Below, piece by piece: positions 22,035-40,135 of a stretch of 64,000 nt of DNA (within the stretch, counting starts at the first letter, position 1; each line of letters opens with the position of its first letter). The stretch covers positions 26,874 through 90,873 of the forward strand of contig CALKCF010000002.1 of NCBI GenBank assembly GCA_938083505.1. Direction: 5' to 3'. This stretch comes from an uncultured archaeon (GTDB taxonomy: Archaea > Thermoproteota > Nitrososphaeria_A > Caldarchaeales > Wolframiiraptoraceae). The notes beneath the pieces are model-generated. The model saw only the letters and a list, made by a program, of their open reading frames with translations, had not been told where the DNA came from and did no database searches. The position numbers were made by a program, and so were the translations under genes.

Positions 22035-22300
22035 TTCTTAGCACCGATGCGCCTAGCGATCCTTATAATCATAAGACGTTAAGTATCTTCAGTCTTTTGC
22101 CTGTGGATATCTCGCTATTGATGAAGCAGACTCTCGATTCTGGCTTTCCCACGCTATGCCAATCAATTGTTTTCTTTCATTTCCTTGACTATCAGGGCAT
22201 GTCTACCCCAAGCTTAAACCCTCCAATAATAACATGTACACCTCCCTATCTCTCCCAATAAGCCTCTTCAACCAGCCGACCATGTTTTAAAGTAGTTCTC

Positions 22301-25399: not shown

Positions 25400-25529
25400 A
25401 ATTCACCAATCAACTTCTCTTTTTTGACGGATGTTCTAAAAAAGCATATAAGTCCATTCTGGTGGATATGATAAGAGTTTATTAATATCAACAACTGTGA
25501 TGTCATTGTCATGCGATGCAAGTGGAACA

Positions 25530-26100
25530 TCAATATTTTCTTGGAATGAAATACTCAACTGTATAGCCTAAGCCTCTCAGCATAAATAGCAAGTCAATAT
25601 GTTTATGTTTGCCCAGCAATGTGGGATGCATCTCAATAAAGAGGTCGGGTAGGTGTTTAGAGATTCTTCTATAACACCCTTTGACTAAGTGGTATTCATG
25701 ACCTTCTACATCCATTCTAATCAAATCAATTTTTCGAGTGATTGAAGAAGCTCATCTCCTGTTGTGACTACAATTTCGAATTGGGATACATTATCATGAT
25801 CCTCGTCTTCTAACAAGCGGTGCCAGTTTGAACCATGGCTATATATTATTTTTGACAATACAACTTTATCAGATAAAGCCACATTAATTGCCTTTACATT
25901 ATTGATATTATTTAGCTTGATATTCTTCATTAAATATTAGAAGTTTAGCCGAACGGGTTCAATACTAATAACTACACCATCCATACCAAGAAGCTTCGCT
26001 TTTAAAATTGTGTAATATCCTATATTACTACCAACATCAACTACAACCACTTTGCTTATAGTCTTCTTTAGTTTTTTAATTTTTTGATTAGTATTTTCGT
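25530..26100 (-). pseudogene. FkbM-family methyltransferase pseudogene (nonsense codon plus frameshifts)
   Basis: Three collinear pieces: VVVDVGSNIGYYTILKAKLLGMDGVVISIEPVRLNF, then TAA (25937-25939), then YLMKNIKLNNINNVKAINVALSD..., then a frameshift at about 25721-25724, then IRMDVEGHEYHLVKG. The N-terminus has no in-frame start. Confidence 0.75.
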
Positions 26101-26486
26101 TGATAATGGTTCATGTATTTTAAATATTTTTAATTCTCGTGATATGCCACGGTCGTGGAGGATAATGTACATTTTTTGGCTTGTATTTAGTCATAATAAT
26201 ATCTATTTTATGGGGTGGAGGCCAAATGTGAATTACCAAATTGAAAATGAATGTTTTGGTTGCCTTCCGTAGACCCCATATTCTGGCTACAGTAATATTT
26301 GATGAATTCCCCAAGTTTCTTAATATTCTTGAAAACCATAGTTCTCATCCTTTTTATATACCCTATTTAAGTTCGGGGAAGGGTTTATGGCCTGGTTTGT
26401 CTCAGCTGACTTGCATTGGATAGGTTTGAGGTGGAACGTATAATCTCTGTCATATCTACTACCGTCTCTAGGCATTATCCTAGGTT

Positions 26487-26887
26487 TGTGGTGATGAGCC
26501 TGTACGAGCTGATAGCCTTCGGTGTTATGGCCCATAAGTATTTTGATACCTTGGTTAAGCGTCTATGCCTCGAATAAGGTATAACAAGGTTGTTGAGAGG
26601 CTTAATAGGTATGAGGAGCTTCTACTGAGGTGTTTAAGTATGTTTGAACTAGGCGATCTTGTTATTGTGGATTCTACACCTATAGAGACCAAGGCCTTGG
26701 CTAGGCATGGTAGGCATCGGAGGAGGGGTGAGAGCACCTTGATAGAGGAGGCCGAGTCGATGGAATATAATGCCTCAAAAAGGGGTTCTACGAAGGCTAC
26801 AAAGCCACTGTTGCCTCAGACGGCTTATACGTCCGCCTGATAGGGATAGACCCTGCCAGCGTCCACGACGAAGGCTTTGATGAATAG
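26487..26887 (+). mobile_element. DDE transposase remnant (IS4/IS5-like), frameshifted and truncated
   Basis: The pieces MSLYELIAFGVMAHKYFDTLVKRL, LGDLVIVDSTPIETKALARHG and, in another frame, GFYEGYKATVASDGLYVRLIGIDPASVHDEGFDE match the DDE transposase blocks (DST...GYK...HD). No intact ORF or terminal repeats were found. Confidence 0.6.
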
Positions 26888-26976
26888 GTTCGTAGAGGGG
26901 TTTCAGGGGTTAAGGTCATGGTTTCACACCCACAACTCTTCTTTCACTACTTTAACACCTGGAGGGTTCCTGCTAT

Positions 26977-27700
26977 TTAATCACTTTTCACTTTACTTGC
27001 TAAATATCCTAATCCTGCTGAAAAATATTCTAAGATTTTTAAAATGATTACTCCTAAAGTAAGTGAGGGCTTAGAATAAAATCGCTTATTTTTGAGGAAG
27101 ATTGAAAATCTGTAAAAAATGTCCATTTGCTTATCGGCGTATTCGCCAAATTTTTCTTTGTATTTGGAGGCGTTTTTTCCATAGTAAAACTTCTTTTTCA
27201 ACCACTTCCAAAGAGAGAAGTTTTCCTCGTGATGTAAGATTTCAGCCTTTATTCTTTGCTTAACATTATAGCCTAGTGATTCTATCTTTTGTGGCAAGAT
27301 GGTCTCCTCAAAGAAAATTATGTCTTCGTCAAAACCATTTACCTTCTTAGCTAGATCTTTCTTGAAAAATCTTGCAGACTCTATTTCTGTTCCAGCGTAG
27401 AAACTTCTCTCGAAATCTCTAACCTTAGTCCAAGATGAGTTGCCAATAGATTTTTCCGGAATAATTATGCCACCAATCCCTTTGTCATTTTTCATTAGAC
27501 TGGCACACTCTCAAATTACATTTCTGGTCAATTCCATATCGGGATCTATAAAGTAAACATATTTACCTCCAGCCTTTTTGAGACCAAAAGTTTTTTACTT
27601 CAAAACGTTTGGCATCTAACTCTAAAACTTTTACCCATGATTTTTTGTAATTTCTTTAAGAAACACCCTTAAAGTGTTTAAGCAATCTAGGATACAATAT
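26977..27700 (-). pseudogene. family-2 glycosyltransferase pseudogene (in-frame TGA, frameshifts, N-terminal loss)
   Basis: KTFGLKKAGGKYVYFIDPDMELTRNVI, then TGA (27511-27513), then ECASLMKNDKGIGGIIIPE...GFDEDIIFFEE. The upstream GT2 part (KEITKNHG..VKVLELDAKRFE) is readable only by changing frame. Confidence 0.7.
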
Positions 27701-27738
27701 AATATGTTGTATATATTATAAATCATAATATTTTGGTT

Positions 27739-28614
27739 TTAACTTTGGATGATCTTAATGAGCGTAGTTAATCGTTGAATATATGTATGTTCCTTGTAAG
27801 CTCTTTTTTGTGCTCGCTCAGAAATTCTTTTCCTTTCTTCCTTCATTGCTATGTAATATCTAGCTAGTTTAATGAGCTCATTATTGTCGTTATACACGAT
27901 AACTTCTTCCCCACTTTTAAACATATTATCTATCCCATAAGCATTATCGGTGAGAAGGAATGCTCCACTTCCCGTAGCTTCAAAGGTTCTCATATTAACT
28001 TTATATGGTAAGTCATCCTCCATGTGTACGTTTAGGACTATTTTCGCAGCATTAAAAGCCTTAACCATTTCTGTCCCGTATATCCCATCATCTGCCTCAA
28101 CTCCATGAAAGAAATACTTCCAGTATGGACCCCAAACCTTAACTTTCAGTCCAACTTTTTTAAGCAATTTTATAATTCTGCCCCTTCTCAACGTGTATGT
28201 ACCAACAAAACATATATCTGAGCCGTAAAGCCTAGTCTCCTCATCACTTAGTTTAACCCTTCTATGCACAGTTGGTTCACACGCAAACGGAAGAAAGTGA
28301 ACGTTATTGCATCCTATTCTTTTATACATTTCCATAGCCCTCTCTGAGGCTGTAAAGATGTAATCATAGCTTGGTGCTATATATCTAACGAGGCTATTGA
28401 AAAATCTCGGATCGTCAGGATACCATAAGGCCGTCCTCGCCCCCAAGTTTTCTTTAATCCATTCAATAGTCTCCGGTTTCACCGCTTCGCCCTTAATTGA
28501 CAAAACTAAATCTGGACAGAATGTTTCGGCACTCCTCCTTATCTCCTCATTTACCTTATTCAGCCATAGCAGATTCGCTATATCCCTTAAGGATTTAGAC
28601 CTAGTAATTGCCAT
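27739..28614 (-). CDS. CgeB-family glycosyltransferase-like protein (DUF3880 + Glyco_trans_1_2 pattern), N-terminus frameshifted
   Basis: 291 aa: FCPDLVLSIKGEAVKPETIEWIK...ALWYPDDPRFF...YDYIFTAS...FVGTY...VWGPYW...LNVH...NMRTFEATGSGAFLLTD. A typical family N-terminus, MRILLLGS (ATG 28700), lies upstream in another frame. Confidence 0.6.
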   Translation of the reverse strand: MAITRSKSLRDIANLLWLNKVNEEIRRSAETFCPDLVLSIKGEAVKPETIEWIKENLGARTALWYPDDPRFFNSLVRYIAPSYDYIFTASERAMEMYKRIGCNNVHFLPFACEPTVHRRVKLSDEETRLYGSDICFVGTYTLRRGRIIKLLKKVGLKVKVWGPYWKYFFHGVEADDGIYGTEMVKAFNAAKIVLNVHMEDDLPYKVNMRTFEATGSGAFLLTDNAYGIDNMFKSGEEVIVYNDNNELIKLARYYIAMKEERKRISERAQKRAYKEHTYIQRLTTLIKIIQS

Positions 28615-28749
28615 TCTAACGGTGTTTACAAACCGACCGAGCCTTTCTTTATAACCATAGAATTTGACAGCATATCCGAGCCTAGTAGCAGTATTCTCAT
28701 AGCTAAAATAGTTTAAGGTTATTTTGCAGTCCAGTACATGATGCCCTGT

Positions 28750-30762
28750 TTACGCTTTGTAGAATATAATATTGGTTTTAGTTAATTTCTTCAACCGTTC
28801 TAGCGTGACGTTATTCTTTATCCAACTATAAGCCAAGTACAGGGTACAGGCGATTAGAGTTATACCGGATATTATTGAACCAATATGGAACCATTTTTGG
28901 GGCGGGTACTCTATGATGATCTCCAATAAGCCGGTCTGGTTGATCCAAAAACCATTAATGAAACCATAAAGAGGAATTGATGAATAGCTTTCGTTGGAAA
29001 CATAGGCGCGCCATTCACTGTCATAAGGGGCCGCAAATGCTAGTAAGAAAGGAGATGAGGTGTTTATTGTTACTTTCCATAAGGTAGGACTTTCTTGTTT
29101 ATACTTAATTATTTCTGTCTTCCCCATATTTTGCAGAAAAACTTCTTTCAACTTTTTGTTTTCATCGCTTGTATAAATCCATATATCTCCTAAACGCGTG
29201 TTATCTAACGCTTTAATTTTTAGTTCTTGGCAACCCCTTGTTAAAAATGTGGAACCGACATCGATTATTCCATATTGGTTAGAAGCTACATAGAATGTTT
29301 GGTTGGCGATGGTTATTTCGGCAGTTCCTAAAATTTCAGCCGAAATTCTATAGTTACCTTCTTTGAGGATATGCAAGTTTTTTATTACGATTTTCTGTTT
29401 TGGAATTATCAAGATATCATCGAATTTCTGTTTTGGAATTATTAAGATATCATCGAACCATGTGGTTGCATTTCCTTTTGACGTGTCTAACACCCAGCCG
29501 GCATTTAATGCTATCCGTAGCATAGTTATTTCACTATCTAATTCTAAGTCGGCAATGTGTTTCTTCCAATTATATGATCCATATTGAGCTGCGGGCACTT
29601 GAATGAGTTGAATCCATGTGTTTGTAGTCCTGTTTAATCCTTCTATGACTATATGGCTTGCTTCGGCATTTTCCTGTTTTATATGCGTTACTATTTGATA
29701 TTCGCCTGGAGTTATTGGTATCGCTGAGCTTCTTATCCAGCTCCAATGCCAAGTGGAGGTTACCTGTGTTGTTACTTTAAGGCTAACGTTTCCTCGATAT
29801 TTTACCTGGTCGTCAAGTGTAGCCGTAAACCCTTCTTCTGGTTGAGACCAGTAAAGTGGATAATGGTCTACTGCTTCTTCAAAAGAAGGGTTCTTTACAA
29901 TGTTAGTTTCAAAACTTAGTGGATCTATGAGGTAAATTATTGTTGCGTTTTTTAGTTTTGATGTGAGCATTTGTTCTGTTTGCCCTTTGCTCAATATTAA
30001 TATTTGGTCTATGTAGTTTTCTCCGTCTATGTTGGAGATTGTTAATGTATGAGATTGACTTGAGTTTCCTTGGTATAGTTTCACCCACTCAAGTGAAAAG
30101 GCACTAGATAAAGTTATCACATTTCTTTCATTCTCACCATCTAACATGAATCTTATTTTTCCTCCGTTTGGCCATTTAAGGATCTTCGCCCATATTTCAA
30201 AAAGGCCTTTCATTTCTATTGGTATTTTTAACTCGCTTTCAGCTTTCGTGAACGCTCCGTTGTTTATTGTAGATGCGAAGAGATAATTGTACCAGAACCA
30301 GTTTTTGCTATTTATCCAACCTTTTTGGGCGTCTGTTTGTATTGCATAGTTTCCAGGATCTATTTTTGTCCCTAACAATATTGATATTATGTCAAGCATG
30401 TCGTTTTTTATAACGAATATTGGAGTATTGATTTTCAGTTGAGTAATGTCAGTTAAATAAGCAATGTCTGTTAGGTTTAATAATTTTGCTAGGTGGATCA
30501 ATATTGATAGTTCAGCCGTCCCATATATTACCGTGGAAGGCGTATATATGAATTCTGTTGTTTTTGTATTTTGATACAACTTGAACTCAGGTTTTTCGTC
30601 TTTAAGTTCGAGGTCCCGTTGATGCGTGATGAAGTTAGATGTCACGTCAGGCTCCCACTTTTCGAGGAGGTAGGGATAAAGAGCTAACGGGACGTAAAGT
30701 GGATACTTTGATGTAAAGTCTTTTCTTTGGATTACGTATTTTGTGGCGAATAGGCTTATCAA
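28750..30762 (-). CDS. surface/membrane-anchored paralog of the 22301-25399 extracellular region, lacking the polytopic N-domain
   Basis: 670 aa from a TTG start. The C-terminus FAAPYDSEWRAYVSNESYSSIPLYGFINGFWINQTGLLEIIIEYPPQKWFHIGSIISGITLIACTLYL aligns residue for residue with the 1032-aa protein. Confidence 0.65.
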   Translation of the reverse strand: MISLFATKYVIQRKDFTSKYPLYVPLALYPYLLEKWEPDVTSNFITHQRDLELKDEKPEFKLYQNTKTTEFIYTPSTVIYGTAELSILIHLAKLLNLTDIAYLTDITQLKINTPIFVIKNDMLDIISILLGTKIDPGNYAIQTDAQKGWINSKNWFWYNYLFASTINNGAFTKAESELKIPIEMKGLFEIWAKILKWPNGGKIRFMLDGENERNVITLSSAFSLEWVKLYQGNSSQSHTLTISNIDGENYIDQILILSKGQTEQMLTSKLKNATIIYLIDPLSFETNIVKNPSFEEAVDHYPLYWSQPEEGFTATLDDQVKYRGNVSLKVTTQVTSTWHWSWIRSSAIPITPGEYQIVTHIKQENAEASHIVIEGLNRTTNTWIQLIQVPAAQYGSYNWKKHIADLELDSEITMLRIALNAGWVLDTSKGNATTWFDDILIIPKQKFDDILIIPKQKIVIKNLHILKEGNYRISAEILGTAEITIANQTFYVASNQYGIIDVGSTFLTRGCQELKIKALDNTRLGDIWIYTSDENKKLKEVFLQNMGKTEIIKYKQESPTLWKVTINTSSPFLLAFAAPYDSEWRAYVSNESYSSIPLYGFINGFWINQTGLLEIIIEYPPQKWFHIGSIISGITLIACTLYLAYSWIKNNVTLERLKKLTKTNIIFYKA
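29393..29458. repeat. 33-bp in-frame tandem duplication (2 copies, 2 mismatches) inside the 670-aa gene
   Basis: Copy 1 (29393-29425) is TTCTGTTTTGGAATTATCAAGATATCATCGAAT. Copy 2 (29426-29458) is TTCTGTTTTGGAATTATTAAGATATCATCGAAC. They encode FDDILIIPKQK twice. Confidence 0.9.
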
Positions 30763-30941: not shown

Positions 30942-31706
30942 ATGATCGTGACAGAAAATGTCCGTAAACTTCTTAAAGCCCACGAAGGGCTAAAACGTGA
31001 AGTTTACTTAGATATTGAGAACTCAAGCTTCGTTCTCCCAGAAGTGATTGAAGCTATGCTTCCATACTTTAACAAACGTGCTTATGTCAACCCTACGCTT
31101 ACTCATAAACCGGGATGGGAAGCTTACGACGCTATAATGGAGTCAGCCCAAACAATTGCAAGGTATTTTGGCTGTAAAAGTATCGAAGAGATCAACTTTA
31201 CGCCAGGAGAGGCTGAGGCTAACAACCTTGCCTTGCTTGGTGCAGTCTCTCAAATGTGTGTAAAACGCGGAAAAATCGTGATTTCTGAGATTGAACCGTT
31301 AAGCATCATGCACGTAGCGGAAATACTTTCCAAACAAGGATTTTCAATGATTAAAGTGTCCGTGGATGGTGAGGGTTTTATAGACCTTGAAAAACTTAAA
31401 GAGGCTGTAGACGATGAAATAGTTATCGCGAGCTTCTCCGCTGTTAACTGTGAAGGTGAGGCATTAACCATTGAGTTAAGCTTGAACAGTGTGTACGTTT
31501 CAAGCGGAAGCGCTTGCACAAGACACTTATTGCAACCAAGCCATGTGTTAGTCGCCATAGGTAGAAAATTTGAGGAAGCTCACGGCAGCATCCTCATGAA
31601 AGCTACACGTATACGCACAGAGGCGGATATAGACTATGTATTTGAAGTTTTGTCAAAGGTCGTTGAAAGACTTAGAGGAATAACGGGCTCAATGGTGGCC
31701 GAGTAG
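30942..31706 (+). CDS. NifS/IscS-like protein lacking the PLP-lysine region (degenerate cysteine desulfurase homolog)
   Basis: 254 aa against about 390 expected. Class V aminotransferase blocks are recognisable (VYLDIENSS, INFTPGEAEANNLAL, SSGSACTRHLLQPSHVLVAIG). About 130 central residues, including the HK PLP-lysine block, are absent and key residues are substituted. The frame is intact. Confidence 0.6.
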   Translation: MIVTENVRKLLKAHEGLKREVYLDIENSSFVLPEVIEAMLPYFNKRAYVNPTLTHKPGWEAYDAIMESAQTIARYFGCKSIEEINFTPGEAEANNLALLGAVSQMCVKRGKIVISEIEPLSIMHVAEILSKQGFSMIKVSVDGEGFIDLEKLKEAVDDEIVIASFSAVNCEGEALTIELSLNSVYVSSGSACTRHLLQPSHVLVAIGRKFEEAHGSILMKATRIRTEADIDYVFEVLSKVVERLRGITGSMVAE

Positions 31707-31708
31707 TC

Positions 31709-32170
31709 TTGTCGCGCTTCCCCCTACCCTACACTCAAAAAATCTTGGATCTGTTTAGGAATCCAAAGAATTTAGGGAAAATGAAGGACGCCACTGTTTC
31801 AGCGGTAGCCGGCAACCCTCAATGCGGAGATATGATAACTTTCTATTTGAAGATCAACGAGCAAGACGTGAGTGAAAAGTCGACATTTGAAAGAACTGAA
31901 AAAATTAATCAGATGAAGCTTGAAGATGCTTGGAAAATTTTGTGGAAGAGCATTGTCGAAGAGTTGGGAGGGCTGCCGGCTGTCAAATTTCACTATGGCA
32001 TATTGGCTGTTGGAGCTTTGAGACGGGCTATTCGCGCTTCCTACAAAATGCGGCAACAAATTCCAGAGTGGCTACCGAAAGAATTAACCTTTGAAGAAAA
32101 ACAAGCATTAGAAGAGGAGCTGGCAAAAATCCTTTCGAAGAGAATGAAGATGGTAGAAGAAGGTGCTTGA
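31709..32170 (+). CDS. IscU/NifU-N-like protein with two of three cluster-ligand cysteines lost
   Basis: 153 aa, TTG start: FRNPKNLGKMKDATVSAVAGNPQCGDMITFYLKI (first Cys kept). The GC-x-x-AIASSS block is deleted and K-x-HCS reads KFHYG. There is an extra C-terminal helical tail. Confidence 0.55.
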   Translation: MSRFPLPYTQKILDLFRNPKNLGKMKDATVSAVAGNPQCGDMITFYLKINEQDVSEKSTFERTEKINQMKLEDAWKILWKSIVEELGGLPAVKFHYGILAVGALRRAIRASYKMRQQIPEWLPKELTFEEKQALEEELAKILSKRMKMVEEGA

Positions 32171-32172
32171 AG

Positions 32173-33411
32173 ATGTTCAATCCCTACAAGGTTAGGGAAG
32201 ACTTCCCTATATTGAAACGAAAGATAGACGGTAATCAGATCATATACTTTGACAATGCGGCAACATCCCAAAAGCCAAGGCAGGTCATCGAAGCGATGAA
32301 AAAGTTCTACGAAGAACAAAATGCCAACGTTCACCGCGCAGTGCATACATTATCACTGGAAGCTACGGAACTTTATGAGGAGGCCCACGAGGAGGTTGCT
32401 GAATTCATAGGCGCCAAGAGTATGGAAGAAATAATCTTTGTAAGGGGCACAACGGAGGCCATAAACCTCGTTGCCTATTCGTGGGGGCTTCACAACCTTA
32501 AACGGGGAGACGAGGTTCTCGTAACTCTCATGGAGCATCATAGCAACATAGTTCCATGGGAGATTCTCTCAGAAATAAAAGGATTTAAAGTTAAGTATTT
32601 AGATGTTAACCTGGATGGTACATTAAACTATGAATTGTTAAAGGAAATGTTAACACCTAGAGTAAGGCTTGTCTGCGTAACCCATGTTTCGAACGTGACG
32701 GGCGTCATTAATGATGTGGAAACTGTTGCGAAACTCGCCCATGAAAATGACGCTTTAGTTCTTGTGGATGGTGCCCAATCAGTACCCCACATACCCGTAA
32801 ATGTCCAAAAGTTGGACTGTGACTTCTTGGCTTTCTCCGGTCACAAGATGCTTGGGCCAACGGGGATAGGCGTCTTGTATGGTAAACGGGAAATTCTTGA
32901 AAAAATGAAGCCCTTTCATGGCGGTGGCGGAATGATTAATGAAGTTTCCTTTAACCTAGAGATGCATAGATGCAAAATCTCATGGAACGAACTACCATGG
33001 AGGTTTGAGGCTGGAACCCCGGACATAGGTGGGGCTGTTGGCTTAACGGCCGCCATAAAGTATTTGAGGACTCTTGGAATGGAAAACGTGAAGACCCACG
33101 AATACAAATTAACCGAATACACCATGAAACACTTGAAGGAATGCCCAAAAGTCACGGTTTACGGTCCTAAAGATGCTGCGCTAAAATGTGGGATAATACC
33201 ATTCAATGTTGAAAGATTAGATTCTCATGATGTAGCCTTACTTTTAAACAGTTATGGAATAATGATAAGGAGCGGGTTCCACTGCGCCCAGCCTCTTCAC
33301 GAAAAGCTTAAAATTCCCTCATCCGCAAGAGTCAGCTTTTACGTTTATAATACTCAAGAAGAAGTGGACCGCTTTATCGAAGCCTTAAAGGAGATAGAAG
33401 GGGTTTTATGA
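32173..33411 (+). CDS. sufS: SufS-type (class II) cysteine desulfurase
   Basis: VREDFPIL, FDNAATSQKP, RGTTEAINLVA, MEHHSNIVPW, LVDGAQSVPH, FSGHKMLGPTGIGVLYG, FEAGTPDIGG and RSGFHCAQPL are all canonical SufS/CsdA blocks. Confidence 0.9.
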   Translation: MFNPYKVREDFPILKRKIDGNQIIYFDNAATSQKPRQVIEAMKKFYEEQNANVHRAVHTLSLEATELYEEAHEEVAEFIGAKSMEEIIFVRGTTEAINLVAYSWGLHNLKRGDEVLVTLMEHHSNIVPWEILSEIKGFKVKYLDVNLDGTLNYELLKEMLTPRVRLVCVTHVSNVTGVINDVETVAKLAHENDALVLVDGAQSVPHIPVNVQKLDCDFLAFSGHKMLGPTGIGVLYGKREILEKMKPFHGGGGMINEVSFNLEMHRCKISWNELPWRFEAGTPDIGGAVGLTAAIKYLRTLGMENVKTHEYKLTEYTMKHLKECPKVTVYGPKDAALKCGIIPFNVERLDSHDVALLLNSYGIMIRSGFHCAQPLHEKLKIPSSARVSFYVYNTQEEVDRFIEALKEIEGVL

Positions 33412-33686
33412 CCGCAAACACGAGCCTTAAGGAATATATAGCGAGGATAGAAGAGGCATGTGGTGAAGAAAAGGACATCATAGTTCACTTCAAATATGAG
33501 AAAAAGGATGAGGTAATAAAGAGAATACTCAAAAAAGCAAAGGTGGAGAGGACGGTCGCCGGAATAATCCTCGACCTAACTTACAAGGAGTTTTCCATCC
33601 GCCTTTATAATATGGGGAAGGCCGTATTCAGAAAAGTGAAAGAAAAAAGTCGGGTGCAAGAGGTTTTAGCTGAACTTTTGTTATAG
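33408..33686 (+). CDS. 92-aa protein of unknown function, translationally coupled to sufS
   Basis: Its ATG overlaps the sufS TGA (ATGA). It has a single Cys (EEACGEE). No family was recognised. Confidence 0.5.
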   Translation: MTANTSLKEYIARIEEACGEEKDIIVHFKYEKKDEVIKRILKKAKVERTVAGIILDLTYKEFSIRLYNMGKAVFRKVKEKSRVQEVLAELLL

Positions 33687-34500: not shown

Positions 34501-35292
34501 GATAGAAGCGCTTATAATCTTTATATGGGTTACGCCACTCTATAGGTTGAGGATAATCACTGATGAAACTAAGCACGCTTATCTCACACCTCTATACAAG
34601 TTTCATACGAAGTTTCAGAAGTTGATATTTGATAACTACTCCAATCGTATACGGTTTTGTTAAGAGGTTAAGTAGAATTATTTTATAGTAAAATTTAGGT
34701 TTATGTAGTGCGACGATTTAGGAAAATGCATTTTCACGTATGGATGCATTAGTAACAAAACTATCAAAAAATAAACTGGCAAACAAATCAACCACGGTAC
34801 AGTTCACATGTTTCCGGTAACGTGATGAACCGTTTATGTATATCACATACCACATCTTCTCTCCTTAAAATTTTGCATACTTCGCAAAATTTCAGCATAG
34901 CTTCAACTGATGAAAGGTTATGTGCCACTATGCCTGCTGCAATTTGATCGGCCAGGGAACGGACGGGGTCTATGGACTCTAACTGTTTTAGTATTTTCAC
35001 CCCTCTTTGTAAAGATATTAACTTATTGCCGTTTGGGTTATTCCTATTTTTTTGTTATAGTTACTTGTGAGAAAATGTATTTTTTATTAAATTAATTCTT
35101 GGCTATTAGAGACCTGAACCCGGGAAGTATTAGCTTTACAACGGCCTTGCAAGGTGCTCTCAATATGGATAACTCTAAAATCTTTATCTATATAAAGTGC
35201 AACAGATAAACTCATTTCCTTGTTTTTAGAAGTGTGGGTAACTCAACAAGTTGTGCACTTACACTTATATTCTAAAGTTTATAACGAAAACA

Positions 35293-35523
35293 TTAACACC
35301 TCATAACGAAAACACGCCAGTTTTCGTTATCGTCCGTTTCAACTTTAATAACTTTAACATTCAATTCCCTTGCAGCCTTAATTATATCATCTCTTGATGG
35401 TTTATGTGTTCCCTTCACCACTAATATCTCTCCGTGTTCAAGGTTATCTACACTTCTCCTAAACTTTATCAGAGGTACAGGACAGATATCGCCGGATGTA
35501 TCTAAAATTTTGTACTTCTCCAT
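35293..35523 (-). CDS. tusA: TusA/SirA-family sulfurtransferase
   Basis: 76 aa: LDTSGDICPVPLIKFRRSVDNLEHGEILVV, with the CP-x-P active-site motif. Confidence 0.8.
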   Translation of the reverse strand: MEKYKILDTSGDICPVPLIKFRRSVDNLEHGEILVVKGTHKPSRDDIIKAARELNVKVIKVETDDNENWRVFVMRC

Positions 35524-35525
35524 AA

Positions 35526-36689
35526 TTAATTGCCCTCCTTATGGCTGAAATTCGAGCATTTTACAGCCTTCATTAAAGTTTCGACTAACATTACCTTTCC
35601 TGTTCTTAGGTTCAACACATGCTTTTCTCTTTCCTCCTGCGCTTTTGCTTTAAGCTCTTCAAATTCTTTGTAATGTTCTTTAAATTCCACACCTGTGATA
35701 CCTCTTAAGTGCCTCCGCAAAAACTCTCCATAATTTTCGCATGAGTCAGGGATGATAGTAACAACCACTCCTCTTCTTCCTTCATTGTTTAATCTTTCAG
35801 CAATTTTTAGGGCTCCAAAAAAATTGGTACCGCTCGAAATCCCTGCAGGGATGTCCGCGTTCCAAAGCGCTAACATTGCGTTATATGCATCTTTATCGGT
35901 GACCTCCATTATCTCATCACATACTGTTTTTGCTTCTTTGAAAAAATTTGATGCACCTAGCTCGTCTTTACTCCTAAGTCCAAGCTGATGGTGACCCTCT
36001 TCAGGAATAAGCCCTACAAATCTTATACCTTCTACGTTTTGTCTCAGCCAATTTGCGCACCCAATCATGGTTCCGCACGTTCCAAGAGCAATAACGAAAT
36101 GTGTCATTTCTCCAGCAGTTTGATGATATATTTCTGGTGCTGTTGTTAAAAAGTGAGATAGCGGATTGCCAATGTCGTCATATTGGTCGAAATTGATCAC
36201 CTCGGGGTCTATTTTTTCTACATACCTGGCCGCTGCTATGGCTTCGCCCCTTTTAGCTGCTACTGTAGGGCAGTATTTGTCAGAGAACGTTTCGATTTTT
36301 GTCTTATTCTTAATCAATTTCGTAATTAGCCATTCATTTTCTTTAACAGTATTTTCGGACATGTAAACTGTGAAATCAAACTTCTCCATCAAAAGAAAAG
36401 AACCAGCTAGTCCAAAATTTCCGGAAGTTGCTGTAACAACTTTTCTTTTCCCATCTAATTTCCCTTCATGTAATTTTAGGTAATACATTGTGGCAAAAGG
36501 TCTGGCCTTTACTGATTCCCCAAAATTCGTATACTCCAACTTTGCATATATGGGAACTTCTTTGTCGAATGGGTTTATAGTTCGGGGTATGCGTATAAGT
36601 GGAGTAAATCCTATTCCTAACTCTTTTAACCAGGAATAAAAATGACGGAGGGTGAACTTTTTACTAACTGTTAGGATTTCGTTCAGCAT
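35526..36689 (-). CDS. PLP-dependent cysteine synthase family enzyme, O-phosphoserine sulfhydrylase-like
   Basis: 387 aa: TPLIRIP, AKLEYTNFGESVKARPF (PLP lysine), ATSGNFGLAGSF, GTCGTMIGC. Length and blocks resemble the recalled Aeropyrum OPSS (SLSVKDRPA, ATSSNFG). Confidence 0.7.
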   Translation of the reverse strand: MLNEILTVSKKFTLRHFYSWLKELGIGFTPLIRIPRTINPFDKEVPIYAKLEYTNFGESVKARPFATMYYLKLHEGKLDGKRKVVTATSGNFGLAGSFLLMEKFDFTVYMSENTVKENEWLITKLIKNKTKIETFSDKYCPTVAAKRGEAIAAARYVEKIDPEVINFDQYDDIGNPLSHFLTTAPEIYHQTAGEMTHFVIALGTCGTMIGCANWLRQNVEGIRFVGLIPEEGHHQLGLRSKDELGASNFFKEAKTVCDEIMEVTDKDAYNAMLALWNADIPAGISSGTNFFGALKIAERLNNEGRRGVVVTIIPDSCENYGEFLRRHLRGITGVEFKEHYKEFEELKAKAQEEREKHVLNLRTGKVMLVETLMKAVKCSNFSHKEGN

Positions 36690-36705
36690 GGTATCATCCC
36701 TACTG

Positions 36706-37209
36706 TTAGTCTTTCTGAGGAGGACAAGTTTCGTTTAGATCCGTGTTTAACATATAATCTGTTGGGATTTGTCTGCAGAATCTCAGAATCATGTTAGCTA
36801 CAATCATGGATTTTGAAGCGAACCTTGGCCTGCGATACACCATACTAAGAGGTTCTACTTTGAGCTGGCGGTTCAAAAAAGCGGCGGTTTCACTAAGCTT
36901 TTCTAAAAAGATCTCTTTAATAACAGAGTAACTGCTACTTATAGTAAAGTCGATTTTTTCAGCGGGTGGTTCTGTTAGGATTTTAAAATTTTTCACAACA
37001 CCTTTGTCCAGTTGAATGAAGAGCGTTATTTTTTCGCTGGAGTATAGCTCTCGCAATTTTGGAGGAATGTCTGTAATAACGTATGCAAGATTTAAACTGT
37101 AGCCGGAGGTGAGTCTATTAAATTCCTCGTCTTTGGTTCTGGCACCTTGAACAACTCTGACCGCTTCACGAACCCACTCTGGGGAAAGGAACAACAATTT
37201 TTCAGACAT
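36706..37209 (-). CDS. SCP2 (sterol-carrier-like) domain protein
   Basis: The likely start is MSEKLLFLSPEWVREA. It has DFTISSSYSVIKEIFLEKLSETAAFLNRQLKVEP, the SCP2 C-terminal pattern. Confidence 0.55.
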   Translation of the reverse strand: MSEKLLFLSPEWVREAVRVVQGARTKDEEFNRLTSGYSLNLAYVITDIPPKLRELYSSEKITLFIQLDKGVVKNFKILTEPPAEKIDFTISSSYSVIKEIFLEKLSETAAFLNRQLKVEPLSMVYRRPRFASKSMIVANMILRFCRQIPTDYMLNTDLNETCPPQKD

Positions 37210-37225
37210 TGTTTTATTTCCCTCA

Positions 37226-37651
37226 CTAAACGTAGATAATTGTAGCATCTTTGGCGTCTTCTGTTAAGAACGAAGCTAGCCCGCGCACTCCATCTGTATT
37301 ATCAGTTAACTCATCCATTGTTAAGTTGTGAAATGCCATGGCGGCGGGACAAGCGTATATCTTCCCTCCCAAACTGCGAAGAAGTTTTAGCTGCTCTGAG
37401 ATTTTTGGTAGACCGTTTTTTCTCCTTCTTTTATGAATTTCCTTTCTTATTGACTCATCTGTTTCCTCTCCCACTTCATCCTCAAACCCCTTCCTCAATC
37501 TTAGAATCCCTCCGTAACTGAACAGCACATAGACCGTTTCTCCAAGCGCAGAAGAAACTGTTGCAAGGTTTAAAGCAGATACCACTCGCTCATAGGACGC
37601 GGTGTTTATGATTAAAGCTTTTTTCTGGATTCTTGTCTGATGGTTGGACAT
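37226..37651 (-). CDS. DsrE/DsrF/DrsH-like (DsrE2-type) sulfur-relay family protein
   Basis: 141 aa: KKALIINTASYERVVSALNLATVSSALGETVYVLFSYGG...GGKIYACPAAMAFHNLTMDEL, with the conserved Cys. Confidence 0.6.
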   Translation of the reverse strand: MSNHQTRIQKKALIINTASYERVVSALNLATVSSALGETVYVLFSYGGILRLRKGFEDEVGEETDESIRKEIHKRRRKNGLPKISEQLKLLRSLGGKIYACPAAMAFHNLTMDELTDNTDGVRGLASFLTEDAKDATIIYV

Positions 37652-38178
37652 TAGGCTAAAACCCTTGCTTTTAAGCCTCGCTTTTCTCTTTCAGCATCTT
37701 TTATTCTTTCTGCCCATTCAAGAAGAGGAATGTCTTCTTTGCGTATTCTTTCAAGATTTTCTGCTAACTCGTTAAGCTCTTTTTGAGTTAATTTTTCAGC
37801 AAAAAGGACGATACCCTCACATTCAATGGGATGGGAAAGGATATCGCTCCTGATTATGTCCGGCAATATTTTAGCTTGTTCCTCCGAAATTTTTCCCTTA
37901 CTTAAGATTTCTACAAGCTCCCTTCCTCTTTTTACTATTCGATCATGTACACCAAGCAAGTATTCTAAGTACTGTCTTCCAAAGAACTTCTCAAATGTTA
38001 AATAGAGACTTTCTTCCTCCCATCTAAAGTGTGGGCCTCCTATTTTATCTAGACGAATCATTATTTCCAGCGCTTTTGTCGCGTCTTTCTTGCTTACTGC
38101 GTCTATTAGTTCCAAAAGCATGTCTCTGACCTTTGCGTGATCACTTCTAAATTCAGCTATGGGATCTAATTTTGGCAT
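37651..38178 (-). CDS. hemerythrin-like (HHE cation-binding) domain protein
   Basis: FRSDHAKVRDMLLEL...GGPHFRWEEESLY...GVHDRI are H/E-rich four-helix motifs. ATG 38178 is preceded by GGAGGTGGTG. The stop overlaps the next start by 1 nt. Confidence 0.65.
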   Translation of the reverse strand: MPKLDPIAEFRSDHAKVRDMLLELIDAVSKKDATKALEIMIRLDKIGGPHFRWEEESLYLTFEKFFGRQYLEYLLGVHDRIVKRGRELVEILSKGKISEEQAKILPDIIRSDILSHPIECEGIVLFAEKLTQKELNELAENLERIRKEDIPLLEWAERIKDAEREKRGLKARVLA

Positions 38179-38923
38179 TTTAAACACCACCTCCTTTTCT
38201 TTAGGTGTAATTATAACAGCGTTATAGATAAATTTTTCGGTCATTAGATGTTGCATAAGGGTTGCAACACGTCAAGTAAAAGCACACATATCTCCAGAAG
38301 AAGAATCTCAATACGTTTAGGAAACAGTATAGAGATCATCAAGTTATCTATGGTGTTTTTTATTTCTTTATTTTACAAACTTGATACCTCATTCCTTGCA
38401 AAAGCTTATGCTCCTTTCGAGTTCCTGGTTTTGTTTTTAGTTTTTCTACTGTTTGGTGTATTTCGTTGGTAGGTCAACTATCATAAAACTTAATTTCCTG
38501 ATTATTTCGTCTTTTGCAAAATTGTTTCCAATTTTGGGCATAAAAAATAAATTAAGGCATCATTCAAGAATTTATCGCCCAAGAAACAAGCCATAGTATT
38601 TGCCTCAGGAGCAATTGGCCTTTATGATTTCCTCTTGATTTGCTTAATCTACGCCATAATATATCTGGAAACTTGGATTGGAGCTTTAGTAAGCATAATA
38701 ACAGCCGAAAATATCCTCTTCACACTATTTTTTAGCACAAAACTCGGGGGATCTTCCCAAGGCTAGAAAATCATTGTATGTTTCACATAGTTCCAACACC
38801 TAAAAACTCAAGAAAATACCATCCGAGGTGTTCTTAAAGTTGTATTTTCTTTATCGTCTTATCTTTTGGACGGAAAACGAGTAATGTAACACTTCATGGA
38901 ATGGTTCCGGAACTAGGGGGTAT

Positions 38924-39000
38924 TGGAGCCTCGGGCGGGATTTGAACCCGCGATCGCCGGCTTACCAAGCCGGCGCCCCACCCGGCTAGGCTACCGAGGC
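38924..39000 (-). tRNA. tRNA-Thr (anticodon GGT) with genomically encoded CCA
   Basis: Reverse complement: GCCTCGG-TA-GCCT..GGGC-G-CCGGC-TTGGTAA-GCCGG-CGATC-GCGGG-TTCAAAT-CCCGC-CCGAGGC-T-CCA. Confidence 0.9.
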
Positions 39001-39298: not shown

Positions 39299-40135
39299 TT
39301 ATGAAGGTTGTAGAACCAACCTCATAGCGACTATTAGGAGCGTAAGGCCCAGAAGCCTCTTGATCTTCGCGTCGCCTACACGGCTGGAAATGCGCGCACC
39401 CACCTGAGCACCCAGCATGCCACCTAGGCCTAGGAAAATGGCATAATCGAATAGGATGTTGTTCAGCGTGGAATGGGTAATGGAGCCGAACAGCGTTGTG
39501 AATACGAGTATAAAATGAGATGTGGCGGTTGCGATGTGTACGGGCATGCCTAGTATGTGTATCATAATAGGAACATGTAGCACGCCACCGCCGATTCCGA
39601 AGATGCTGGATGCCAAGCCAGCGAAGAAGCTTGTTATAAGCCCTAAGGGTACGTTAACTGAATACTCGTAGACTTTACCGTCGGAATCGACAAACCTCCT
39701 TTCGTATCCTCCAGCCTTCACGTTGCTAGACTGCTTCGTATGTTTGAGCAAAAGATAAAGCGATGTCCAAACCAAAAGGGCCGCAAAGATTGCCTTAAAC
39801 ATGAAGGACCCAAGGTGACCTGCAAGGTATGCACCCGCGATCGCGCCCGGAATCGTAGGAATCACGAGTATGAGTCCAAGCCTGACATCAGCCCTCCTCA
39901 GCCTCAAGTACGAAACGCTTCCGGACAGAGTGTTTAAGAAAACGAAAAACAAGCTAGTTCCAGCCGCCACCTTAGGCTCAAAGCCATATAGCAATATGAG
40001 AGCTGGAACAAGATACGCCCCACCACCTATCCCTATTAACGTCCCCAATCCGCCTATTCCAAAACCGAGGGCTGTTAATGCCAGCTCCTCATACCATAAC
40101 ATTATCAAACACCCAAAATTTCGCTCATGTAACAT
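39299..40135 (-). CDS. TauE/SafE-family sulfite/anion exporter (DUF81)
   Basis: 278 aa with about 8 TM and duplicated G-rich motifs (GIGGGAYLVP, GIGGGVLHVP). Confidence 0.8.
   Translation of the reverse strand: MLHERNFGCLIMLWYEELALTALGFGIGGLGTLIGIGGGAYLVPALILLYGFEPKVAAGTSLFFVFLNTLSGSVSYLRLRRADVRLGLILVIPTIPGAIAGAYLAGHLGSFMFKAIFAALLVWTSLYLLLKHTKQSSNVKAGGYERRFVDSDGKVYEYSVNVPLGLITSFFAGLASSIFGIGGGVLHVPIMIHILGMPVHIATATSHFILVFTTLFGSITHSTLNNILFDYAIFLGLGGMLGAQVGARISSRVGDAKIKRLLGLTLLIVAMRLVLQPS

Follow-up and report, generated by a model that had tools for sequence, protein, structure and literature searches.

A five-gene archaeal cassette encodes a CysM-like PLP enzyme together with TusA- and DsrE-family sulfur-carrier-like proteins

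The CysK/CysM family of cysteine synthases binds the substrate carboxylate through an Asn loop, T-S-G-N-T-G, and in the CysM subtype an arginine of the lid loop (R210 in E. coli, R220 in M. tuberculosis) binds anionic substrates. In the archaeal Sep-tRNA:Cys-tRNA synthase SepCysS, phosphoserine gives rise to a PLP-bound aminoacrylate, which is attacked by a persulfide on an enzyme cysteine. Iyer, Burroughs and Aravind (2006) described type 4e gene neighbourhoods that contain a ThiS-like protein, an E1 enzyme without rhodanese, JAB and always SirA, and the TusA of these neighbourhoods was predicted to pass sulfur toward amino-acid synthesis (PMC1779556). The TusA-family protein YeeD carries persulfide and thiosulfonate adducts (PMC11073785). 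In the sHdr relay, DsrE has been shown in vitro to hand sulfur to TusA (PMC11094781, PMC4175335); proteins of the DsrE3 type accept it from polysulfide and pass it on to TusA (PMC11094781), and the DsrE2B protein of M. cuprina reacted with no sulfur compound tested (PMC4175335).

Here we describe a cassette of five genes within a 64-kb window, the whole stretch of DNA that was analysed. An earlier note had read five minus-strand genes at spacings of 1 to 17 nt, coupling a PLP enzyme to sulfur-relay proteins in a combination for which it knew of no described pathway. A literature search found no published description of this composition, although close precedents exist in CysM–CysO, the SirA/TusA neighbourhoods (PMC1779556) and YeeD (PMC11073785). 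All five ORFs were present and intact at 35293–38178 on the minus strand, in the order hemerythrin, DsrE, SCP2, PALP and TusA from 5′ to 3′, with measured gaps of −1, 16, 16 and 2 nt, in agreement with the earlier reading, and a Shine-Dalgarno-like motif ahead of each gene. Profile searches upheld the domain assignments (PF01814, PF02635, PF02036, PF00291 and PF01206). Judged by the single strand, the short gaps and an order kept in the relatives L089–L092, the cassette is predicted to form a single operon.

These relatives are four further metagenomic contigs from different samples, and since all carry the five genes in identical order, the arrangement cannot be put down to chance; a sixth contig (L102) is a fragment. 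The neighbourhood survey confirmed the conservation of the set, within a single shallow clade only: the full set was found at five loci of close relatives, with PALP proteins 78–90% identical. The five-gene set is not an ancient unit and joins two separately conserved modules, and the cassette is best explained as a sulfur-assimilation operon built of these modules, PALP–TusA and hemerythrin–DsrE–SCP2. The window clade is without the sulfate-reduction genes seen in sister PALP loci, and its hemerythrin–DsrE–SCP2 module occupies the place of the sister clades' sulfite reductase.

The five cassette genes are all intact, in contrast to four decayed genes that lie no more than 5 kb away: two flank the cassette directly, and two are the linked NifS-like/IscU-like pair. 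Tblastn and frame analysis identified a decayed copy of a protein with an HTH and four cysteines at 34788..35165 (minus strand), of which only the last 70 aa at the C-terminus survive intact, the HTH part being broken by stops and frameshifts. Intact copies of this protein measure 125–126 aa with a weak HTH_3 match, and one follows TusA in L092; the decayed gene may once have encoded a regulator of the cassette.

PALP (35526..36689, minus strand) is a CysM-like fold-type II PLP enzyme of 387 aa that matched PF00291 with 126 bits in a profile search. Its scores against the NCBIfam models all fell below the cut-offs (cysKM 150.2 against 344, cysM 148.5 against 394, cysK 121 against 351), and weak matches were obtained to the models of cysteate synthase, SbnA and Cds1. 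CysM was the top PDB match by sequence and profile, and a Foldseek comparison of the AF2 model (pLDDT 91.7) gave TMt values of 0.86–0.90 to CysM, CysK and OCBS. The Schiff-base lysine is Lys61, in an ESVKAR motif that corresponds to SVKDR of CysM, with Lys-Ala-Arg standing for the usual Lys-Asp-Arg; all 24 of 24 family members have this lysine. The Asn loop reads TSGNFG versus TSGNTG, its Ser and Asn invariant and its Thr replaced by Phe family-wide. Further features include the PLP-phosphate loop GTCGT (203–207), the Ser of GISSG (283–287), a lid loop with His233, Gln235 and Arg239, and a helical C-terminal extension of ~65 aa (residues 322 to 387). Arg239 (GLRS) aligns with Arg210 of E. coli CysM (GIRR) and is invariant in the PALP family. 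On these alignments PALP appears to have a complete set of catalytic residues for beta-replacement, and like CysM it probably keeps all the features needed for the use of free sulfide or thiosulfate. The invariant pair Cys140-Pro141 lies within a seven-residue family-specific insertion, and Cys140 is the sole family-specific residue kept even in remote relatives (31–46% identity). The inserted loop is probably flexible, given its low pLDDT of ~64 in the AF2 model.

The PALP clade is archaeal and rare: of 1.84 billion representatives, those assigned to it form about eight full-length clusters at 50% identity, and it occurs in 6 of 185,579 species genomes. The inserted loop with its invariant Cys-Pro, the GNF form of the Asn loop, the CysM-type Arg and the C-terminal extension of ~65 aa are the hallmarks of this clade. 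It is monophyletic in our tree and separated from canonical CysK/M by a sharp break, with scores falling from 235 to 118 bits; we regard it as an unstudied relative of CysM. Some genomes (L012, L013) carry a canonical CysK or CysM 1–3 kb from PALP.

TusA (35293..35523, minus strand, 76 aa) starts 2 nt past the PALP stop. It matched PF01206 with 60.3 bits (cut-off 28.6), bears Cys14 in a CPVP motif and stayed below the cut-offs of the equivalog models for TusA (28 bits, cut-off 78), YeeD (19.5, cut-off 147.5) and YedF (25, cut-off 110). The CPxP cysteine is kept in every PALP-linked TusA but the frameshifted copy of L015. Across 21 distinct PALP loci searched with a TusA HMM, TusA directly adjoins PALP in 17 and lies within 2.5 kb in 19; it is absent from the flanks of two MSBL1 loci. 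The adjacency is seen in Bathyarchaeia, Thorarchaeota and MSBL1-like lineages, whether the two genes run in the same direction or diverge; in L006, L092 and the window they overlap or are separated by 0–2 nt, and the TusA subtypes follow the PALP tree. The functional tie between the PLP enzyme and sulfur-relay proteins proposed by the earlier note is thereby strengthened, as it is by an unrelated lineage in which a homologous DsrE and a TusA precede a bona fide CysK and MetY. The order there is hemerythrin remnant, DsrE, TusA, Rrf2, true CysK (478 bits), MetY, MetX and MetW, and the DsrE upstream of CysK–MetY is 53% identical to that of the window.

A sulfite reductase (Sir) adjoins the PALP–TusA pair in 9 of the 21 loci. 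L010/L097 carry a single-strand operon of PAPS reductase, Sat, TauE, Sir, TusA and PALP, L012 and L096 a Sir–TusA–PALP operon, and in MSBL1-like loci CysRS adjoins PALP. No desulfurase able to load TusA from cysteine was found in any of these operons. Gene adjacency by itself is silent on the direction of sulfur flow; the operon context of PALP–TusA, for its part, points to cysteine. Supported by the sulfate-reduction operons and the CysRS neighbour, the predicted product of PALP is cysteine, made by beta-replacement of O-acetylserine or O-phosphoserine.

The second module begins with an HHE hemerythrin-like protein of 175 aa (37651..38178, minus strand; PF01814, 34.4 bits, cut-off 25.3). Its start at 38178, as read earlier, agrees with the 175-aa homologues and with a Shine-Dalgarno motif, GGAGGTGGTG, 6 nt upstream. 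The putative His/Glu ligands H15, H50/E54, H77 and H115/E120 are kept in six homologues, including those of L089–L092 and L172, and the protein is 79% identical to the hemerythrin of a stand-alone module in L172. A RIC-like role, which had been suggested for it, was not borne out: only the HHE domain was detected, with neither an ScdA_N domain nor a RIC model match at E ≤ 0.01. The DsrE-family sulfur-carrier-like protein (37226..37651, minus strand, 141 aa) matched PF02635 with 36 bits (cut-off 22.7) and PF13686 with 28.5 bits. Its single cysteine, Cys101 in YACPAAM, aligns with the family cysteine of PDB 2QS7, a DsrE2B homologue that was its best, albeit weak, PDB match (E = 6e-4); 2QS7 is SSO1126, named DsrE2B (PMC4175335). 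Support for the DsrE2 subgroup, to which the earlier note had likened the protein, comes only from this weak match: the DsrE2 model NF047629 gave 16.5 bits against a cut-off of 210, and the protein fits no named subgroup. We found 48 DsrE homologues.

The SCP2-fold protein (36706..37209, minus strand, 167 aa), whose start was placed by alignment at 37209, Met14 of the ORF, has no conserved cysteine. Its PF02036 score was marginal (25 bits, cut-off 21.3); the AF2 model (pLDDT 83.5) matched 1wfr and 2cx7 with a Foldseek probability of 1.0 and TMt of 0.71–0.79, which confirms the SCP2 fold. The structural match is SCP2 of T. thermophilus. At least 13 contigs, paired by their equal lengths, are common to the SCP2 and DsrE homologues. 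The hemerythrin–DsrE–SCP2 trio also occurs alone, without PALP or TusA, and therefore has a function of its own.

We tentatively propose, as a reading that is possible rather than probable, that PALP is a cysteine synthase dependent on a carrier, TusA, which supplies it with bound sulfane sulfur and is itself loaded here by DsrE. PALP and TusA would together form a two-protein cysteine synthase, in which PALP would turn O-phosphoserine (or O-acetylserine) into a PLP-bound aminoacrylate and sulfur would arrive as sulfane sulfur on Cys14 of TusA, instead of or in preference to free sulfide. From TusA the sulfur would probably move to the invariant Cys140 on the flexible loop of PALP, which would then attack the aminoacrylate. 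This would leave the enzyme (or TusA) joined to cysteine through an S-S bond, from which a thiol, a reductant or HS− would free L-cysteine. The hemerythrin–DsrE–SCP2 module could act as an accessory loading or protection unit, DsrE taking up sulfane sulfur (polysulfide or S0) on Cys101 and handing it on to TusA; any role assigned to SCP2 and hemerythrin is guesswork. The published passage of sulfur from DsrE3-type proteins to TusA (PMC11094781) and the intactness of the cassette amid decayed neighbours favour this reading. Against it stand the likely fitness of PALP for free sulfide or thiosulfate, the failure of DsrE2B, the closest solved relative of the window DsrE, to react with the sulfur compounds tried in M. 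cuprina (PMC4175335), the ThiF and/or ThiS genes near PALP in 10 of the 21 loci, and the two MSBL1 loci with no TusA in their flanks. As to the source, the earlier chain from SufS through TusA and PALP to cysteine was abandoned, since SufS consumes cysteine and such a route would be futile; the sister clades point to sulfite reductase or sulfane sulfur. If true, this would be a route in which cysteine is built from protein-carried sulfur.

Among the alternatives, an ordinary CysM-type synthase working on free sulfide or thiosulfate, with TusA, DsrE, hemerythrin and SCP2 handling sulfur in parallel or downstream, seems to us somewhat unlikely. The carriers could then traffic SufS persulfide to Fe-S clusters, tRNA or Moco, convert thiosulfate to sulfide and sulfite in a YeeD-like manner, or detoxify reactive sulfur. 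E. coli/Salmonella CysM is indeed the closest characterised homologue of PALP, and its Arg is kept; the independent occurrence of the hemerythrin trio also fits this explanation, as do the flanking genes. A plus-strand cluster of NifS-like, IscU-like, SufS and orf92 genes (30942..33686) is linked to the cassette, its NifS-like and IscU-like members degenerate and its SufS (32167–33411; TIGR01979, 586 bits) intact, and the same four genes flank PALP–TusA in Thorarchaeota and Bathyarchaeia loci and in L015. This conserved SufS/IscU/NifS linkage more likely marks a cysteine consumer. Both SufS and TauE (39299–40135) were confirmed as neighbours, the latter being only ~23–26% identical to the operon-linked TauE genes. 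TusA-family YeeD decomposes thiosulfate upstream of cysteine synthesis (PMC11073785), and sulfite release of this kind would explain the adjacent sulfite reductase. An ordinary synthase nevertheless leaves unexplained the TusA-specific tie to PALP across lineages and orientations and the family-wide invariant loop cysteine, and sits poorly with Sir–TusA–PALP operons that contain no desulfurase; the canonical CysK or CysM close to PALP in L012 and L013 counts against simple redundancy.

It is decidedly unlikely that the donor is a ThiS/CysO-like thiocarboxylate, with TusA replacing the rhodanese that loads an E1-activated carrier and DsrE feeding TusA. SirA has been predicted to substitute for rhodanese in sulfate-assimilation neighbourhoods (PMC1779556), and the basal MSBL1-like PALP clade carries a full Ubl–E1–JAB set, L008/L103 encoding PALP, a 64-aa ORF, TusA, a ThiS-domain–ThiF fusion (ending ...VSGG) and a JAB peptidase. 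In 10 of the 21 loci PALP has ThiF and/or ThiS genes at a distance of up to ~6 kb; ThiF and/or ThiS-GG ORFs occur at this range in L001, L003, L009, L013, L015, L089, L090, L092 and L100. The 64-kb window, however, holds no ThiS-like GG-ending ORF of 55–130 aa and no match to the ThiF or JAB query, an absence of limited weight as carrier genes may lie elsewhere in the genome. Moreover, JAB occurs in the basal clade only, L089 has an intact cassette but a fragmented ThiF, and the Sir–TusA–PALP operons are mostly without ThiS, ThiF and JAB.

Very unlikely, finally, is a PALP whose product is a different beta-substituted alanine (S-sulfocysteine, cysteate, cysteine persulfide or a cofactor precursor) or which acts as a cysteine desulfhydrase, with the carriers and hemerythrin managing released sulfur or sensing redox state: the scores far under every equivalog cut-off, the weak cysteate synthase, SbnA and Cds1 matches, the altered GNFG and Lys-Ala-Arg motifs and the canonical CysK of L012 and L013 would suit it, but the linkage of PALP to complete sulfate-to-sulfide sets and CysRS points to cysteine, and fold-type II PLP enzymes, by established enzymology, release sulfide, not persulfide, so that a desulfhydrase could not load TusA directly.

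Compared with known systems, a carrier-fed PALP stands nearest to E. coli/Salmonella CysM, its best PDB match (104–140 bits), with the same fold (TMt up to 0.90) and in common the PLP Lys, the phosphate loop, the Ser contacting N1 and the Arg of the GxR loop. Identity is only ~30%, however, and PALP reaches ~150 bits against cut-offs of 394–413 bits; unlike CysM, it has the inserted Cys-Pro loop, GNF instead of GNT, KAR instead of KDR, a His-His-Gln lid loop, a 65-aa C-terminal helical extension and a near-constant TusA neighbour. The M. tuberculosis CysM–CysO–MoeZ–Mec system likewise has a CysM-type enzyme fed by a small carrier protein encoded alongside, as is proposed for PALP, and the basal PALP clade resembles it in its E1–Ubl fusion and JAB peptidase. 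There, the carrier is a ThiS-fold GG-thiocarboxylate protein, whereas beside PALP it is TusA, a Cys-persulfide carrier; the ThiS-fold GG carrier, E1 (MoeZ) and JAB (Mec) set is not in the window and appears only in L008/L103, and M. tuberculosis CysM (3dwg/3dki) scores below E. coli CysM against PALP.

Type 4e neighbourhoods share with PALP loci a TusA/SirA among Sat, PAPS reductase, sulfite reductase and a sulfhydrylase (PMC1779556), but they use the fold-type I O-acetylhomoserine sulfhydrylase and always contain Ubl, E1 and JAB, while most PALP loci have TusA only. YeeE/YeeD (TsuA/TsuB), a thiosulfate-uptake system that feeds CysM, similarly place a TusA-family protein with a single catalytic Cys upstream of cysteine synthase in assimilation (PMC11073785); YeeD, however, partners with the membrane transporter YeeE, whose gene was not seen at the PALP loci. 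SepCysS, a fold-type I enzyme whose substrate is tRNA-bound phosphoserine and which is not homologous to PALP, would offer a mechanistic analogy only. The DsrE3/TusA relay of sHdr oxidisers resembles the cassette in encoding a single-Cys DsrE-family protein with TusA, yet it serves a dissimilatory process and delivers to an Hdr-like complex, whereas the partner in the window is a predicted biosynthetic PLP enzyme.

The cassette occupies 35293–38178 on the minus strand, and ORF listing together with Pfam and NCBIfam scans confirmed the five genes proposed in the earlier note. From upstream to downstream, they encode an HHE hemerythrin (175 aa; 37651–38178), a DsrE-family protein with a single cysteine, Cys101, in a YACPAAM motif (141 aa; 37226–37651), an SCP2-like protein (167 aa; 36706–37209; a weak SCP2 match of 25 bits), a CysM-like fold-type II PLP enzyme, here called PALP (387 aa; 35526–36689; PF00291, 126 bits), and TusA with Cys14 in a CPVP motif (76 aa; 35293–35523; PF01206, 60 bits). 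Homologue alignment placed the hemerythrin start at 38178, with GGAGGTGGTG immediately upstream, and the SCP2 start at 37209. The intergenic gaps measure −1, 16, 16 and 2 nt, and a purine-rich Shine-Dalgarno-like motif precedes every start. Evidence for a single transcript was sought in sequencing runs, where the region was matched by DNA runs alone, all of them from a single study of a marine metagenome.

The DsrE cysteine aligned with the family cysteine of PDB 2QS7, the DsrE2B homologue of S. solfataricus. An AF2 model of the SCP2 protein (pLDDT 83.5) retrieved bacterial, archaeal and eukaryotic SCP2 structures in Foldseek; the alignment contained no conserved cysteine, and this protein is therefore not a covalent sulfur carrier. 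Among the PALP-linked TusA proteins compared, the C-terminal Cys76 was found in the window copy alone. A RIC-like role for the hemerythrin, suggested earlier, found no support in the Pfam and NCBIfam scans.

SufS (32167–33411) and a TauE permease (39299–40135) flank the cassette as first described, with housekeeping genes beyond them; the source contig is 207 kb long. No gene for Sat, PAPS reductase, Sir, ThiF, CysRS, canonical CysK, Hdr, ThiS or JAB was found within the 64-kb window. Rfam and ARAGORN detected a tRNA-Thr (38924–39000) and one tRNA-Leu as the sole RNAs; neither a riboswitch nor any further RNA element was found close to the cassette. TauE was rejected as a member of the system: it shares just 23–26% identity with operon-linked TauE genes, and the tRNA gene and a decayed gene separate it from the cassette. 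Further away, the GC content dips to 0.35–0.39 at 22001–30000, compared with 0.43–0.50 elsewhere; this stretch, possibly an island of foreign or cell-surface genes, contains a 670-aa ORF (28750–30762) without a Pfam match.

Four genes within 5 kb of the cassette have decayed. Downstream of TusA lies a minus-strand pseudogene (34788–35165) of an HTH_3 protein with a C-terminal four-cysteine region, whose HTH part carries in-frame stops and frameshifts, leaving the last 70 aa as an intact ORF. Its intact 125–126 aa counterpart comes immediately after TusA in L092 and at a greater distance downstream in L089 and L091 (L-numbers denote other contigs or loci with homologues of the cassette genes); the pseudogene could represent a regulator that the cassette has lost. 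On the plus strand at 38351–38797, two tblastn segments in different frames mark a frameshifted remnant of an M50-like membrane protein gene, which in L089–L092 stands divergently upstream of the hemerythrin gene; the interval of 700 bp that separates the cassette from tRNA-Thr, although it looks empty, is thus a decayed gene. The NifS-like gene (30942–31706, plus strand; 254 aa only) has lost about 150 central residues (~170–318 of the 408-aa L001 homologue) and with them the SSYK PLP-lysine motif, while the SSGSAC catalytic-cysteine region is kept. The adjoining IscU-like (NifU_N) gene (31709–32170, plus strand), next to intact SufS, lacks the 13-residue SYGCAANIATASI segment and reads HYG for HCG, so that two of the three cluster-ligand cysteines present in L001 and L015 are missing. 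On the other side of SufS, overlapping its stop codon, is orf92 (33408–33686, plus strand), which has no Pfam or NCBIfam match; homologues with 44–46% identity adjoin IscU in Thorarchaeota (L001/L002) and Bathyarchaeia (L015), and it may act as an accessory protein of SufS or IscU that has so far escaped recognition. Since the cassette itself is intact amid these four decayed genes, our data suggest that selection has kept it as its surroundings eroded.

PALP was most similar, among characterised enzymes, to E. coli/Salmonella CysM (104 bits with a single sequence, 140 bits with the family profile), and all curated cysteine-synthase models scored about 150 bits against cut-offs of 344–413. Its AF2 model (pLDDT 91.7) superposed on CysM, CysK and CBS with a TMt of up to 0.90. 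A database search recovered ~42 full-length relatives at 40% identity or above; below these comes a sharp step in score, from 235 bits to the 118 bits at which canonical enzymes set in. When 1.84 billion cluster representatives were scanned exhaustively with HMMER, only ~8 full-length clusters emerged, and 185,579 species genomes contained six qualifying loci, all from Bathyarchaeia/Thermoproteota; named sources comprised Bathyarchaeia, Thorarchaeota, MSBL1 and one "Aenigmatarchaeota" MAG. PALP thus represents a distinct, rare and sharply delimited CysM-like clade.

The catalytic residues are kept, including Lys61, the Asn loop, the phosphate loop, the Ser of GISSG and Arg239, equivalent to CysM Arg210. 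Compared with canonical CysK and CysM, PALP has KAR for KDR and GNFG for GNTG, a specific His-His-Gln lid loop, a helical C-terminal extension of ~65 aa with invariant Arg354 and His357, and a seven-residue insertion with invariant Cys140-Pro141. The Cys-Pro is retained even in remote relatives (31–46% identity); Cys205 is not. The insertion probably sits near the active site, because in the alignment it falls in the loop just ahead of the GMxGA helix of CysK/CysM; it was modelled with low confidence (~64), and the model suggests a mobile loop. Cys205, in GTCGT, was considered as a second family-specific catalytic cysteine and rejected, as some canonical CysK proteins also read GTCGT and remote relatives carry Gly, Arg or Ala there.

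Genomic context was surveyed using the gene tables of contigs, two collection scans, tblastn with a marker-protein panel and a TusA HMM, giving 21 distinct loci with assessable flanks after duplicates were merged. TusA directly adjoins PALP in 17 of the 21 and lies within 2.5 kb in two further loci (L013 and L008/L103); it is missing from the PALP flanks only in two MSBL1 single-cell contigs. Both co-directional and divergent pairs were seen, often with translational coupling: the two genes overlap by 1 nt in L006, abut in L092 and are 2 nt apart in the window. The TusA proteins fall into two subtypes that track the PALP tree, which indicates long co-inheritance. In 9 of the 21 loci the pair directly borders a sulfite reductase gene.

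Architecture A, hemerythrin–DsrE–SCP2–PALP–TusA, is found in the window, L089–L092 and the fragment L102. Thorarchaeota and relatives carry architecture B, with a small ferredoxin-type Sir–PAPS reductase–Sat(–TauE) set divergent from PALP–TusA; in L001/L002, PALP–TusA is followed by SufS, with orf92–IscU–NifS on the opposite strand, and L015 shows the same PALP–TusA–SufS and opposite-strand orf92–IscU–NifS. Architecture C (L010/L097, L096) is a Pfam-verified single-strand operon PAPS reductase–Sat–TauE–Sir–TusA–PALP, and architecture D (L007/L014, L099/L100) consists of Sir, then divergent TusA, then PALP. Architecture E (L003/L004/L011) has a divergent TusA adjoining PALP, and ThiF–ThiS–ThrC-like PALP and PAPS reductase–Sat–TauE within ~8 kb. 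L012 reads Sir–TusA–PALP–x–canonical CysK, L013 reads CysK ... ThiF–x–PALP–DrsE_2–ThiI, and in the MSBL1-like architecture F, CysRS is divergent from PALP. An NJ tree placed clades A and B as sisters and clade F at the base, so the window arrangement is derived: its clade has lost or left behind the sulfate-reduction module and has the hemerythrin–DsrE–SCP2 block upstream of PALP. The five-gene set from which the earlier note argued is not conserved beyond close relatives; outside them, PALP–TusA alone persists.

Several features of individual loci were also recorded. The Thorarchaeota TusA of L001 (9168–9419) has a C-terminal Gly-Gly (…IRKPGG) that sets it apart from the other PALP-linked TusA proteins, probably by coincidence, though it is notable with ThiS-like chemistry nearby. 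In the nearest relatives of the window, L089 (12753–17712), L090 and L091, the cassette is followed by an opposite-strand MFS transporter and an HdrA/FlpD–HdrC–HdrB–FrhB cluster, which is not in the window and could be a disulfide-reducing partner. ThiS-like genes lie directly beside threonine-synthase-class PALP genes scoring above ThrC cut-offs in L003 (12421–15011, with ThiF alongside) and L092 (8329–9773, where ThiS extends 8 residues past GG), and may represent another pairing of carrier protein and PLP enzyme within these sulfur islands.

Homologues of the window DsrE and SCP2 proteins numbered 48 and 28, respectively, and, when contigs are matched by their lengths, share at least 13 of them, including one that belongs to a Chloroflexi MAG. 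Within a single archaeal lineage (L172–L174; 6378–7879), hemerythrin–DsrE–SCP2 forms a stand-alone three-gene unit, 79%, 67% and 63% identical to the window proteins, among unrelated genes such as intein-containing RadA and NFACT; its DsrE gene occurs on 23 contigs. A different lineage (L175–L177; GC 0.50; e.g., L176 1400–7318) has the order hemerythrin C-terminal remnant, DsrE (53% identical to the window's), TusA, Rrf2, CysK, MetY, MetX and MetW. Here CysK is bona fide (478 bits; cut-off 351) and MetY belongs to the homocysteine synthase family, tying sulfur-carrier genes to both sulfhydrylases of cysteine and methionine synthesis. As the DsrE–TusA pair is found in the cassette and again with this canonical CysK, it has come to be associated with sulfhydrylases on two or more occasions, involving two kinds of cysteine synthase. 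The hemerythrin may serve as an O2, redox or iron sensor or as a protector, and SCP2 may bind a hydrophobic ligand, possibly S8 or an organic polysulfane.

These results establish a compact conserved cassette whose core is a divergent CysM-type enzyme with a dedicated TusA. The core is well supported by context as part of assimilatory sulfur metabolism, most likely yielding cysteine because it ends sulfate-to-sulfide gene sets and adjoins CysRS. A mobile insertion close to the active site with an invariant cysteine typically marks a persulfide acceptor. We infer that TusA delivers sulfur to PALP, because the TusA linkage persists while all other sulfur genes vary, Sir–TusA–PALP operons contain no desulfurase, the PALP family has just such an insertion cysteine, the DsrE–TusA–CysK–MetY cluster provides an independent case, and sulfur transfer from DsrE3 to TusA has been shown (PMC11094781). 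TusA-SSH would hand its sulfur to Cys140, the resulting Cys140-SSH would attack the aminoacrylate to give a protein-S-S-cysteine disulfide, and a thiol, reductant or HS− would resolve it to free cysteine; release by HS− would regenerate a persulfide and make the net reaction redox-neutral. The whole cycle is chemically plausible, with every step inferred, and a cysteine synthase fed by TusA-bound sulfane sulfur is the reading we favour, tentatively and at somewhat less than an even chance. SufS, previously put forward as the sulfur source, would be futile for cysteine synthesis since cysteine is what it uses up; the conserved linkage to SufS/IscU/NifS/orf92 makes better sense as a cysteine-consuming function.

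PALP could instead be an ordinary CysM that uses sulfide or thiosulfate amid sulfur traffickers. Its similarity to CysM, the precedent of YeeD (PMC11073785) and the independent existence of the hemerythrin–DsrE–SCP2 trio support this reading; we consider it rather unlikely, and the cassette would then be an ordinary sulfur gene island. A ThiS/CysO-type thiocarboxylate donor, with TusA as a rhodanese substitute, is supported by clade F, where L008 (9383–11626; the same as L103) encodes a ThiF with an N-terminal ThiS-like domain ending in VSGG and an adjoining JAB peptidase, with PALP and then TusA upstream, resembling the CysO/MoeZ/Mec set; ThiF and/or ThiS lie within ~6 kb in 10 of the 21 PALP loci, and further support comes from the neighbourhoods that Iyer et al. 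classed as type 4e in 2006 (PMC1779556). However, the window has no ThiS, ThiF or JAB, and in L089 the ThiF is broken and the cassette intact, and we regard such a donor as improbable. A different product or a degradative role for PALP seems very improbable.

For many archaea, the routes to cysteine and the movement of sulfur without free sulfide are as yet only partly understood. Carrier-protein-fed cysteine synthesis is already known as a concept from CysO–CysM, and the presence of SirA/TusA in sulfate-assimilation neighbourhoods has been on record since 2006 (PMC1779556), so the cassette is not categorically new; a full-text literature search found the PALP clade, the PALP–TusA pair and the five-gene cassette nowhere described. 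What emerges is a PALP clade with an almost obligatory TusA partner that ends sulfate-assimilation operons in Bathyarchaeia and Asgard-group Thorarchaeota, together with a separately conserved hemerythrin–DsrE–SCP2 module. PALP Cys140, TusA Cys14 and DsrE Cys101 offer directly testable residues. If TusA is the donor, it would be a third kind of protein-bound sulfur donor for cysteine synthesis, beside the CysO thiocarboxylate and the SepCysS persulfide, and widespread assimilatory SirA/TusA genes would gain a concrete biochemical job. On a wider joint reading, which we hold to be doubtful as a whole, uncultured Bathyarchaeia, Thorarchaeota and MSBL1-like archaea would make cysteine by passing sulfur from TusA through the invariant loop cysteine to aminoacrylate, with no free-sulfide pool; the sulfur would come from sulfite reductase, polysulfide or S0, and the trio would be a portable sulfane-sulfur acquisition module. 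This would be the same type of persulfide chemistry as in SepCysS, on a fold-type II scaffold.
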